Source of the DNA: Candidatus Micrarchaeota archaeon
GTDB taxonomy: Archaea > Micrarchaeota > Micrarchaeia > Anstonellales > Bilamarchaeaceae
Direction of reading: 5' to 3'
Assembly: GCA_040753215.1 (NCBI GenBank)
Contig: JBFMEZ010000029.1
Span: 29,394 to 93,393 of the forward strand
DNA: 64,000 nt
The translations under genes and the position numbers were made by a program. The notes below the pieces were generated by a model that saw nothing but the letters and a program-made list of their open reading frames with translations, did not search any database and was not told the origin of the DNA. Below, piece after piece: positions 17,344 to 18,568 of the stretch (its first letter is position 1; each line of letters begins with the position of its first letter).

Positions 17344-18126
17344 ATGAAAGCGAAGATTTTCTCTCTTGAAGGCGTTTCTGCGAAAACGGCCGAGCTCCCT
17401 CCCCAGTTCTCCGAAGAGATAAGGGAGGAGATAATCCGCCGCGCGGTCCTGAGCGACGAGACGAAGCTCTACCAGCCTCAGGGCAGCTTCTACAAGGCGG
17501 GCTTCCAGACCTCAGCCCGCTACCGCGGGAGGAAGGAGGATTACGGCTCTTTGAAGAACCGCGGCCAGGCCCGCCTCCCAAGGGAAGTCCGCCCCAAGGG
17601 AAACTGGGGAAAGGTCCGCAGGATTCCTTCCTCGCTAAAGGGCCACAGGGCACACCCGCCCAAGGTTGAAAAGAGAATAGTCGAGCTTGTAAACAGGAAA
17701 GAATACAAAAAAGCGCTCAGGAGCGCGCTCGCCGCAACCGCCAGCCCCGCGCTCGCCCGCGCCCGCGGCCACCTCTTTGACTGCGAGCTACCCCTGGTTT
17801 TCGAGAATAAGCTCGAATCCCTTTCCAAGACGAAGGAAGTCCTCTCCGCCCTTGAGAAGCTCGCGGGGAAGGACCTGGAGCGCGCCCGCTCCAGCCGCAA
17901 GCCAAGGAGCGGAACACGCTCCCGCAAGGCAGGCACGCGCACCGCAAAGTCCCTCCTCCTCGTTGTTTCCGGAGGCAGCATCCTCAAATCCGCCCGGAAC
18001 ATACCCGGAGTGGATGTTGTGCAGGCGGAAAAGCTCCGCGTGAAGGACCTCGCCCCGGGCACCCACCCCGGAAGGTTCACCCTCTACACGGAAAATGCCC
18101 TGAAGAAGATACATGAGGTGTTATGA
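17344..18126 (+). CDS. rpl4: ribosomal protein uL4
   Basis: 260 aa; position after L3. Confidence 0.9.
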   Translation: MKAKIFSLEGVSAKTAELPPQFSEEIREEIIRRAVLSDETKLYQPQGSFYKAGFQTSARYRGRKEDYGSLKNRGQARLPREVRPKGNWGKVRRIPSSLKGHRAHPPKVEKRIVELVNRKEYKKALRSALAATASPALARARGHLFDCELPLVFENKLESLSKTKEVLSALEKLAGKDLERARSSRKPRSGTRSRKAGTRTAKSLLLVVSGGSILKSARNIPGVDVVQAEKLRVKDLAPGTHPGRFTLYTENALKKIHEVL

Positions 18127-18320
18127 TGATACTCGAAGCCCCCACTCCTTTTTTCTCGCTCCACCTCGCCCAAGGCTCGGTTCCGCTCTGCATACACATA
18201 GGCAAAAAGGAGACCAAAAACCTCTGGCATGCTTCCTATCACCCCCTTCGCTTCGTGCCCCACAAAAAACGCGGAGGGAAATATACTCACAGAAAATGCG
18301 TAATCCGGGAGGTGTTATGA
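18123..18320 (+). pseudogene. decoy copy of rpl23 start (RBS + first 7 codons) reading through a ~165-nt inserted element; 65-codon ORF ending in ATGA overlap with true rpl23 start
   Basis: GAGGTGTTATGATGATACTCGAAGCCCCCA present at 18113-18144 and again at 18307-18338; insert ends with AAAAAACGCGGAGGG motif. Confidence 0.6.
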
Positions 18321-18568
18321 TGATACTCGAAGCCCCCATAAAGACCGAAAAAGCAATAGGAAGGATAGAGTTCGAGAACACAATCACATTCCGCGTCTCT
18401 TCCGGCTCGACCAAGGGCGGCGTGAAATCCGAAGTGGAAAAGCTTTTCGGGGTGAAGGTCGCAGGGGTGCGCACGTACACCACCCCCACCGGCGAGAAGA
18501 GGGCTGTCGTGCGCCTCGCTGAGGGCTTCAAGGCGGAGGACATCTCCTCCAAGCTAAAGATGGTGTGA
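18317..18568 (+). CDS. rpl23: ribosomal protein uL23
   Basis: 84 aa MMILEAPIKTEKAIG..; RBS GGGAGGTG. Confidence 0.9.
   Translation: MMILEAPIKTEKAIGRIEFENTITFRVSSGSTKGGVKSEVEKLFGVKVAGVRTYTTPTGEKRAVVRLAEGFKAEDISSKLKMV

Follow-up and report, generated by a model that had tools for sequence, protein, structure and literature searches.

A short tRNA-linked repeat inserted between rpl4 and rpl23 of a Micrarchaeota archaeon with duplication of the L23 start

How can DNA enter the junction of two adjoining ribosomal protein genes and leave both of them intact? The question is raised by the genes for L4 and L23 in a Candidatus Micrarchaeota archaeon (GenBank assembly GCA_040753215.1, contig JBFMEZ010000029.1, positions 29,394 to 93,393 of the forward strand; this whole stretch of 64,000 nucleotides (nt) is called the window below). 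The rpl4 gene (17344–18126, plus strand; Pfam PF00573 Ribosomal_L4, E=2.5e-33) stops at the TGA of an ATGA at 18123–18126, and its final 12 nt lie within a 30-mer, GAGGTGTTATGATGATACTCGAAGCCCCCA, that is present in exactly two copies, at 18115–18144 and 18309–18338, with a period of 194; none of 100 shuffled sequences contained the 30-mer. The first copy carries the end and stop of L4 followed by an orphan L23 Shine-Dalgarno sequence, start and seven codons, and the second supplies the Shine-Dalgarno sequence GAGGTG and the start of an intact rpl23 (18320–18568, plus strand; Pfam PF00276 Ribosomal_L23, E=3.1e-13), for which either 18317 or 18320 may be the first base and whose N-terminus agrees with that of relatives (MILKAPIKTEKAIGRIEFENTITFRV...). 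Between the two copies are 164 nt (18145–18308, minus strand), here called the D insert. An earlier note on this DNA had described the repeat correctly but put the insert at 165 nt; it had also seen that the ATGA of the L4 stop and L23 start is retained upstream and that a new one exists at 18317–18320, both of which are present. It grouped the locus with three other cases in the window (elements A, B and C, family 1 below) in which the 5' end of a gene is duplicated around an insert, and these three have been confirmed.

The junction is compact in relatives. Scanning metagenome contigs with L4 gave four of them (L041–L044; loci and contigs used for comparison carry L numbers), in which the L23 start comes directly or a few bases after the L4 stop (...GAGGTGTACTGAATGATACTTAAAGCCCCGATAAAG...), with neither insert nor repeat, and two further contigs obtained via L23 proteins (L047 and L048) have the same arrangement. 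At the protein level these six empty sites are 65–83% (L4) and 72–74% (L23) identical to the window. The ancestral form appears as a TGA with an ATG immediately after it in relatives, and as the ATGA overlap in the window. Since all six lack insert and repeat, the 30-mer is a 30-bp target-site duplication (TSD) produced when 164 nt entered the L4/L23 junction in this lineage, so that the suggestion of a true insertion duplicating the L23 ribosome-binding site and start is upheld. The site of element B, at the junction of the S3 gene and rpl29, is likewise empty in relatives. Proteins tell the same story: the 16 closest L23 proteins in a collection of 5.8 billion are all 83–84 aa long without an N-terminal extension, and they align to the L23 part alone of a 151-aa open reading frame (ORF) that spans the insert. 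That ORF (18113–18568) begins at an in-frame ATG at 18113 and runs through the insert into rpl23, and automatic annotation would probably report it as an L23 with a spurious 68-residue N-terminal extension. Gene callers will mis-annotate loci of this kind, as the 151-aa version of rpl23 illustrates.

What, then, was inserted? A blastn comparison of the D insert with the fetched loci picked up a recurrent sequence, GCAAAAAGGAGACCAAAAACCTC, the minus strand of which is the 5' module of a second, Micrarchaeota-specific repeat family (family 2), known from seven copies. An nhmmer profile of this family built without D finds D at 18232–18185 of the minus strand (E=1e-5; E=3.6e-4 with a smaller profile). 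The 5' module has the form G(A/G)GGTTTTTGG(N)CTCCTTTTTGC, which in D reads GAGGTTTTTGGTCTCCTTTTTGC and is nearly identical over 23–29 nt to L045, L046 and L037. The 3' module that ends the unit has the form ...GCAGAG.GAA.CGAGC..GGCGAG....CGA.GA.AAAAAGGAG and is represented in D by TGCAGAGCGGAACCGAGCCTTGGGCGAGG...GAAAAAAGGAG; positions 18192–18145 of the minus strand align with the 3' modules of L037 and L046 over 48–50 nt at about 80% identity, a score reached by none of 1000 shuffles. Judged by these profile and module matches, 18145–18232 is a compact family-2 copy lying antisense to the operon, with its 3' module adjoining duplication copy 1, and by the same alignments CTCCTTTTTT at the left edge of the insert is the tRNA-proximal terminus of the family.

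That terminus takes its name from the resident copies, which lie between a TATA-like box and tRNA-Leu(TAG) (L003, L045 and L046) or, in the window, tRNA-Ser(GGA) (36977–37059, minus strand), where family 2 forms the long 5' leader of the tRNA gene (37058–37258, minus strand; nhmmer E=2.2e-51). Resident copies finish with ...AAAAAGGAG at 1–3 nt before the tRNA. D and L037 are dispersed copies, found at protein-gene junctions with duplications and not directly upstream of a tRNA. The L037 copy lies where one gene stops and another starts. Its ...AAAAAGGAG end, the same as in D, is adjoined by some 19 nt of duplicated sequence (AGGTGATGTAATGGATGGG / AGGTGATGTGATGGCTGGG), and its distal end is about 80 nt shorter than that of D. 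ORFs have been predicted across family-2 copies in other Micrarchaeota metagenome-assembled genomes (MAGs), and a protein search for them returned five proteins (P0001–P0005) and led to L045 and L046; the equivalent search for ORFs spanning family 1 gave two proteins only and was uninformative, and an exact-protein look-up of the ORFs across family 2 from the AB1657 MAG gave no record. At gathering thresholds Rfam recognized only tRNA-Ser in the window, and a viral or plasmid origin was set aside, neither family occurring in 2.9 million viral contigs.

The remaining 76 nt of the insert (18233–18308) align partly with the extended leader of L003. They begin with TTCCTATCACCCCCTTCGC (18233–18251, plus strand), which has a weak likeness (16/19) to the 3' end of tRNA-Ser(GGA), matching window positions 36996–36978 by blastn with an E value of 18 that is not significant alone, and which is left unexplained. 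A 49-nt, 71% alignment of this part of D to the tRNA-Ser/family-1 junction of L035 is not significant either (E=0.35); in L035 the arrangement of a tRNA-Ser 3' end followed by the family-1 motif is complete. Further on come AAAAAACGCGGAGGG (18264–18278, plus strand), identical to the family-1 5' terminus, and directly after it AAATATAC (18279–18286, plus strand), an AT-rich box that resembles TATA and precedes duplication copy 2 by about 23 nt. The former is the family motif that had been noticed near the 3' end of the insert, 30 nt from that end and 120 nt from duplication copy 1. The segment closes with TGCGTAA, resembling the terminus of the family-1 tail. The insert as a whole has the ends CTCCTTTTTT... 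and ...GCGTAATCCGG, which are not inverted repeats.

Family 1 is represented in the window by element A (3072–3211, within the start of pth2; 2974–3309 with its flanking duplication of 98 nt, 2974–3071/3212–3309, 82% identical), element B (21062–21182; 21050–21194 with the 12-nt duplication ATGGCAATCGCA at 21050–21061/21183–21194) and element C, a short form at the start of a cytidylate-kinase-like gene (31380–31455; 31286–31549 with a duplication of about 94 nt, 31286–31379/31456–31549, 95% identical), all on the plus strand. Apart from D, matches related to AAAAAACGCGGAGGG in the window are confined to copies B and C, copy A matching a shorter core. A degenerate pattern derived from A–C found 40 loci among species-representative genomes, 11 of them on one 1.03-Mb contig and all 40 in MAGs labelled as Micrarchaeota or unclassified archaea. 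The core can be written NNN-A5-CGCGG-stem-loop-stem-CCCC-A-T5-A-N'N'N'-GTCATTCTGACC-(C/T run) and may be followed by an optional tail, ACTTCACTTTGAAACGCTTTGAACGTACTCCTTACGCA; short and long forms of the element occur. Its hairpin covaries: in 10–17 of 28 sequences both bases of the outermost three pairs are changed, and three inner pairs alternate between G-C and A-U. Target duplications of 12–101 nt flank 17 of 44 copies, the upstream copy running up to the first hairpin base of the element, 2–6 nt (mostly 4) short of AAAACGCGG, and about ten of them include the start codon of a neighbouring gene on either strand. The copies without a detectable duplication lie antisense at 0–1 nt from a tRNA 5' end (five loci), at a tRNA 3' end, from 4 nt inside it (overlapping an encoded CCA) to 2 nt beyond (three loci), or 0–6 nt past the stop codons of protein genes.

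Two families that are unrelated in sequence thus carry one signature. In both, a constant end lies against the duplication, the one that in resident copies is turned towards the tRNA gene; in both, the other end varies and the duplication is long and variable. D is linked to A–C by the process of insertion and not by sequence, and it does belong, as had been proposed, to the same phenomenon of gene starts duplicated around a short repeat. The account that we regard as probable is that the rpl4/rpl23 junction received a copy of a short non-coding repeat, where breaks staggered by 30 bp would have opened the target and fill-in of the overhangs would have produced the perfect 30-bp TSD. The constant, tRNA-proximal end of family 2 (...AAAAAGGAG) lies directly against duplication copy 1, and the distal end is variable; A–C would have been inserted by the same process, their own constant end adjoining a TSD that is long and variable in length. 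Both essential genes remain complete because the L4 stop, the L23 start and between them the Shine-Dalgarno sequence GAGGTG are all contained in the 30 bp, and the orphan start opens an ORF of 65 codons that finishes on the real L23 start and could keep translation coupled.

Since the elements are non-coding, they were presumably mobilised in trans by an enzyme that they do not encode. As to the intermediate, our leading candidate, tentatively and at somewhat less than an even chance, is a DNA copy made by a transposase or nuclease that acts in trans and is akin to those of IS1634/IS1549; a processed RNA copied as complementary DNA and a replicative template switch are each clearly less likely than that, and equally so. 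A number of points weigh against the account of staggered breaks and insertion in trans. Only two dispersed family-2 copies are known, and of the 164 nt only 88 can be assigned to family 2 with confidence, while 76 form a weakly recognisable mosaic. Among the loci compared there was no donor copy identical to the D insert, and the structure of the locus is known from assembled sequence alone. No transposase was seen in the ten large ORFs of the window that were tested, and across fetched loci totalling about 330 kb no protein family recurred beside the elements, the clusters there reflecting synteny only. Terminal inverted repeats are absent from the D insert, and the inverted repeat of family 2 (CTCCTTTTT/AAAAAGGAG) is subterminal on one side. 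Two other kinds of system were considered and set aside: a diversity-generating retroelement with template and variable repeats at the duplicated gene starts, as the differences in A are not adenine-specific, and integrase attachment-site (Campbell-type) integration as the primary explanation, as the inserts are only 76–164 nt long and have many different targets.

Other explanations reach from an error of assembly to a different origin of the insert. That a chimeric or collapsed metagenome assembly created both the second 30-mer and the insert is hardly credible: the window probably comes from a MAG, and its L4 has no exact match in public assemblies, so that there is no independent assembly of the strain, but the same architecture is found in many independent assemblies, and a by-product ORF that ends exactly on the L23 start is unlikely by chance; ORFs ending in this way on a start are also seen at element C, L017 and the junction of S17 and L14. 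Slightly less remote, and still very improbable, is the proposal of the earlier note that D belongs to the A–C family in a rearranged or circularly permuted form, its hairpin arms having been split around the L23 start through microhomology between GAAGCCCCCA and the 3' arm. It draws on the identity of the 15-nt AAAAAACGCGGAGGG with the family-1 5' terminus and on the ability of CCCCCACTCC-T6 to pair with it. Family-1 profiles, however, detect this motif in D and nothing else (E=8 for the profile of three copies, E=0.45 for that of 44), which was the outcome that the note itself had named as refuting the link. The motif at 18264–18278 is not followed by a 3' arm or T tract, as it would be in a family-1 hairpin with covarying arms; the pyrimidine run and the TCTGACC box are missing as well, the box sequence GTCATTCTGACCCCCCTCC having no match at up to three mismatches in the window outside A–C. 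Nor does the target duplication in D end at the first base of a family-1 element. What had been taken for a hairpin arm with T tract at the 5' end of the insert (CCCCCACTCCTTTTTT is located at 18139–18154) is better read as the family-2 3' terminus (...AAAAAAGGAG, minus strand), as CTCCTTTTTT comes together with 48 further aligned bases and both terminal modules of that family are present. The supposed mimic of a hairpin arm at the breakpoint, GAAGCCCCCA, is ordinary, conserved L23 coding sequence, relatives having AAAGCCCCG or GAAGCGCCG there, and the region has no advantage in folding over shuffled sequence (z=0.29 and z=1.1).

Two further routes accept D as family 2 and differ over how it moved. 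Replication could have gone astray by fork stalling and template switching (FoSTeS) or in the manner of microhomology-mediated break-induced replication (MMBIR), the stalled strand jumping to a tRNA flank, copying about 164 nt up to the tRNA boundary and returning 30 nt behind its point of departure. The patchwork of tRNA-flank modules that the insert resembles, and the widely variable lengths of the duplications, would suit such an event, and tRNA genes are plausible replication barriers that could set the constant end. It is nevertheless improbable, because sporadic error does not predict 17 independent events at exactly the same first base of a hairpin, and because direct reading of the junctions gave no microhomology, whether between the ends of the D insert and the flanks of its duplicated target, where it had been claimed, or where the constant end meets the duplication in A, C, L014, L017 and L025; B and L026 alone share a short A-run. 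Somewhat better placed, although still unlikely, is retroposition, in which a processed tRNA 5' leader (family 2, or antisense family 1) or 3' trailer RNA would be reverse-transcribed at a nicked target. The constant end would then be set by RNase P or RNase Z, the truncated other end and variable TSD being those of target-primed reverse transcription by short or long interspersed nuclear elements (SINEs and LINEs), and only those insertions of such SINE-like retroposons that regenerate a gene start would survive. Unrelated repeats that share one signature, a fact hard to explain by a sequence-specific transposase, would be accounted for, as would the TSD-side end of dispersed copies being the tRNA-side end of resident ones in both families, the presence of TSDs on dispersed and not on resident tRNA-linked copies, and the varying distal ends (short and long forms in family 1, and the shorter L037); on our own reading the distal end of D also falls near the leader start expected from a TATA box about 23 nt upstream in L045. 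The marks of retroposition, a 3' end that is precise and a 5' end and TSD that vary, are all found, and are compatible with it without being specific to it. To be set against it, transcription start sites are only predicted, an A-tail or other 3' priming feature is absent, the family-1 copies that lie 0–6 nt after protein-gene stops and lack a TSD are unexplained by RNA processing, and no reverse transcriptase was seen, although the host genomes were not searched for one. To our knowledge, retroposition of cellular RNAs has not been established in archaea, and if the SINE-like route were true it would be the first to be described there.

To return to insertion in trans, IS1549/IS1634 is the only prokaryotic precedent that we know of for long duplications of variable length. 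These insertion sequences (IS1634 family, with IS4-related DDE transposases) have target repeats that differ from copy to copy, as in D and family 1, but they are autonomous units of 1.5–2 kb with a transposase gene and terminal inverted repeats, whereas the units described here are 55–165 nt long and non-coding, have one constant and one variable end, and were accompanied by no transposase in the ORFs tested. Variable direct repeats of 8–514 bp have been reported for them, in a family that is enriched in Euryarchaeota (PMC2266710). MITEs (miniature inverted-repeat transposable elements) and other small prokaryotic repeats (Correia, ERIC and RUP, and the MITEs of Sulfolobus) are likewise short, non-coding, multi-copy and lineage-restricted, lie in or near genes, and can carry promoter or terminator signals. 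Classical MITEs, however, have terminal inverted repeats and a short, fixed TSD set by the parent transposase, and D does not conform to this pattern, lacking inverted repeats at both ends and having a TSD that is neither short nor fixed (30 nt in D, about 19 nt in L037 and 12–101 nt in family 1); family 1 has a 5'-terminal hairpin in place of terminal inverted repeats. Eukaryotic SINEs and other tRNA-related, target-primed retroposons share the precise end, the variably truncated other end, the variable TSD and the link to tRNA units, but they consist of a tRNA body moved by a LINE reverse transcriptase, whereas here it is the tRNA leader or trailer that is involved, in an archaeal host and with no known reverse transcriptase or 3' tail. 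We found no description in the literature of these repeats or of long TSDs in Micrarchaeota or other DPANN archaea, and nothing on mobilisation of a retroelement type in Micrarchaeota. Two unrelated repeats of tRNA borders with a single signature point to a mobilisation mechanism undescribed in archaea, either IS1634-like in trans or RNA-based.

The genomes of DPANN archaea such as Micrarchaeota are about 1 Mb in size and leave hardly any space between genes, so that most insertions should be lethal. In so compact a genome an insertion with a long duplication would be harmless only if the duplication regenerates what it interrupts. Insertions are nevertheless found in the most conserved operon, at L4/L23 and S3/L29 and probably at S17/L14. 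They are tolerated because the duplication, of unusual length, restores the stop, ribosome-binding site and start at the junction that was broken, and this shows how repeats, selfish or regulatory, can spread into essential operons at no cost. The by-product ORF at D (18123–18320, plus strand; MMILEAP...REVL) starts in the ATGA of the L4 stop with the first codons of L23, traverses the insert, and ends with a TGA overlapping the true L23 start, in the second ATGA; it has no Pfam match. In D, C and L017 an ORF of this kind closes on the start codon that follows, and in B it falls 1 nt short of it, which suggests selection for translational coupling, and the layout from ATGA to ATGA could provide it. 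The tight coupling of ribosomal operon genes that overlap in ATGA is in this sense re-created twice, although, unlike genuine coupled genes, the 65-codon ORF is an accident of insertion without homologues, and no extended L23 occurs among the closest homologues. Transcription in archaea terminates at oligo-T runs, and the T6 run on the sense strand of the operon close behind duplication copy 1 (18149–18154, plus strand) could be such a signal, just as the AAATATAC box could re-start transcription of rpl23. Read in this way, the two may split the operon into new transcription units.

Some features of family 1 concern the elements themselves. A register rule holds for 41 of 44 members, in which the position of the T in the C/T run that follows the box (G)TCATTCTGACC tracks that of the A in the 5' arm: an A at index 1, 3 or 4 of the purine 5' arm predicts a T at index 2, 4 or 5 after TCTGAC, in parallel register (e.g., window 3084–3092 vs 3123–3132). 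The pyrimidine run and the 3' arm form a mirror repeat, as a pyrimidine-motif triple helix (T.A-T, C+.G-C) on the stem would require, although there are three states only and descent of subfamilies could also explain the pattern. At L011, L013, L031 and L038, family 1 begins 0–6 nt after a stop codon (TAG|TCAAAAACGCGG), which can overlap the first base of the element, with no TSD detected, and copies of this kind, A5-hairpin-T5 at gene ends, look like bidirectional terminators. At L005, L010, L019, L028 and L040 the element lies antisense and stops 0–1 nt before a tRNA 5' end, with an internal TAAAAAT about 29 nt upstream of the tRNA; because an archaeal TATA box followed by a leader of some 6 nt would lie at this distance, antisense family 1 may supply tRNA promoters. 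In the tRNA-Leu leader of L003, a full family-1 copy (56–150) lies between the TATA box and family 2, and at the corresponding place in L045 (4940–4960) only about the last 15 nt are kept (AACGTATTCTTTACGCA), a comparison that indicates a secondary deletion of the family-1 hairpin at the latter locus.

Family 1 is also found in the 5' part of an apparent C/D-box small-RNA gene (GTGATGA ... CTGA ... TGAAGA ... CTGA) at L014 (800–1045) and L029 (minus strand, 2560–2770), where duplications of 59–95 nt cover an GGTTTATTAAC promoter, the C box and a pre-existing family-1 tail module. Where gene starts are duplicated, 13 of the 18 differences between the copies at A (2974–3071 vs 3212–3309) are at codon position 3, and at C (31296–31313 vs 31466–31483) all four differences are synonymous and lie within the first six codons. 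These differences look like purifying selection, which would not be expected of an upstream copy that is a dead fragment; the pattern could have arisen if insertion was followed by recombination with a diverged allele, or if the changes fell mostly in the functional copy.

Other repeats are present in the window. Between the S17 stop and the L14 start, genes which overlap in ATGA in the relative L047, there is a palindromic module of about 50 nt (22043–22100; GGCAAAATTCTGCGGAATTTTGACAGAATTTTCACC), with an 18-codon ORF running from the ATGA of the S17 stop to an ATGA overlapping the L14 start. This is probably a third insertion in the same ribosomal operon, and its flanks, GGTGAGGAGAAATGA and GGTGAAAATATGA, may be a degenerate TSD. 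Another palindromic module, GGCGGAATTCCGCAGAATTCTGCCAGACATCGCCGCAGCGATGCAGAG, recurs at window positions 1965–2020, 37093–37157 and 55209–55287 and in L003, L008 and L045, where it stands alone, within family-2 leaders or, in L008, after tRNA-Arg, so that these genomes appear to carry several modular hairpin repeats. Four paralogous ORFs of 524–573 aa are arranged as two tandem pairs (48573–51726 and 59190–63234) with 60–80% DNA identity in patches (repeat families D1–D8), and the two of them that were tested have no Pfam match. Lastly, the motif GGTTTCCGGTTTCC(A/C)G occurs four times in the window, at 1844–1881, 2032–2069, 2847–2884 and 31256–31293, the last two lying just upstream of elements A and C.

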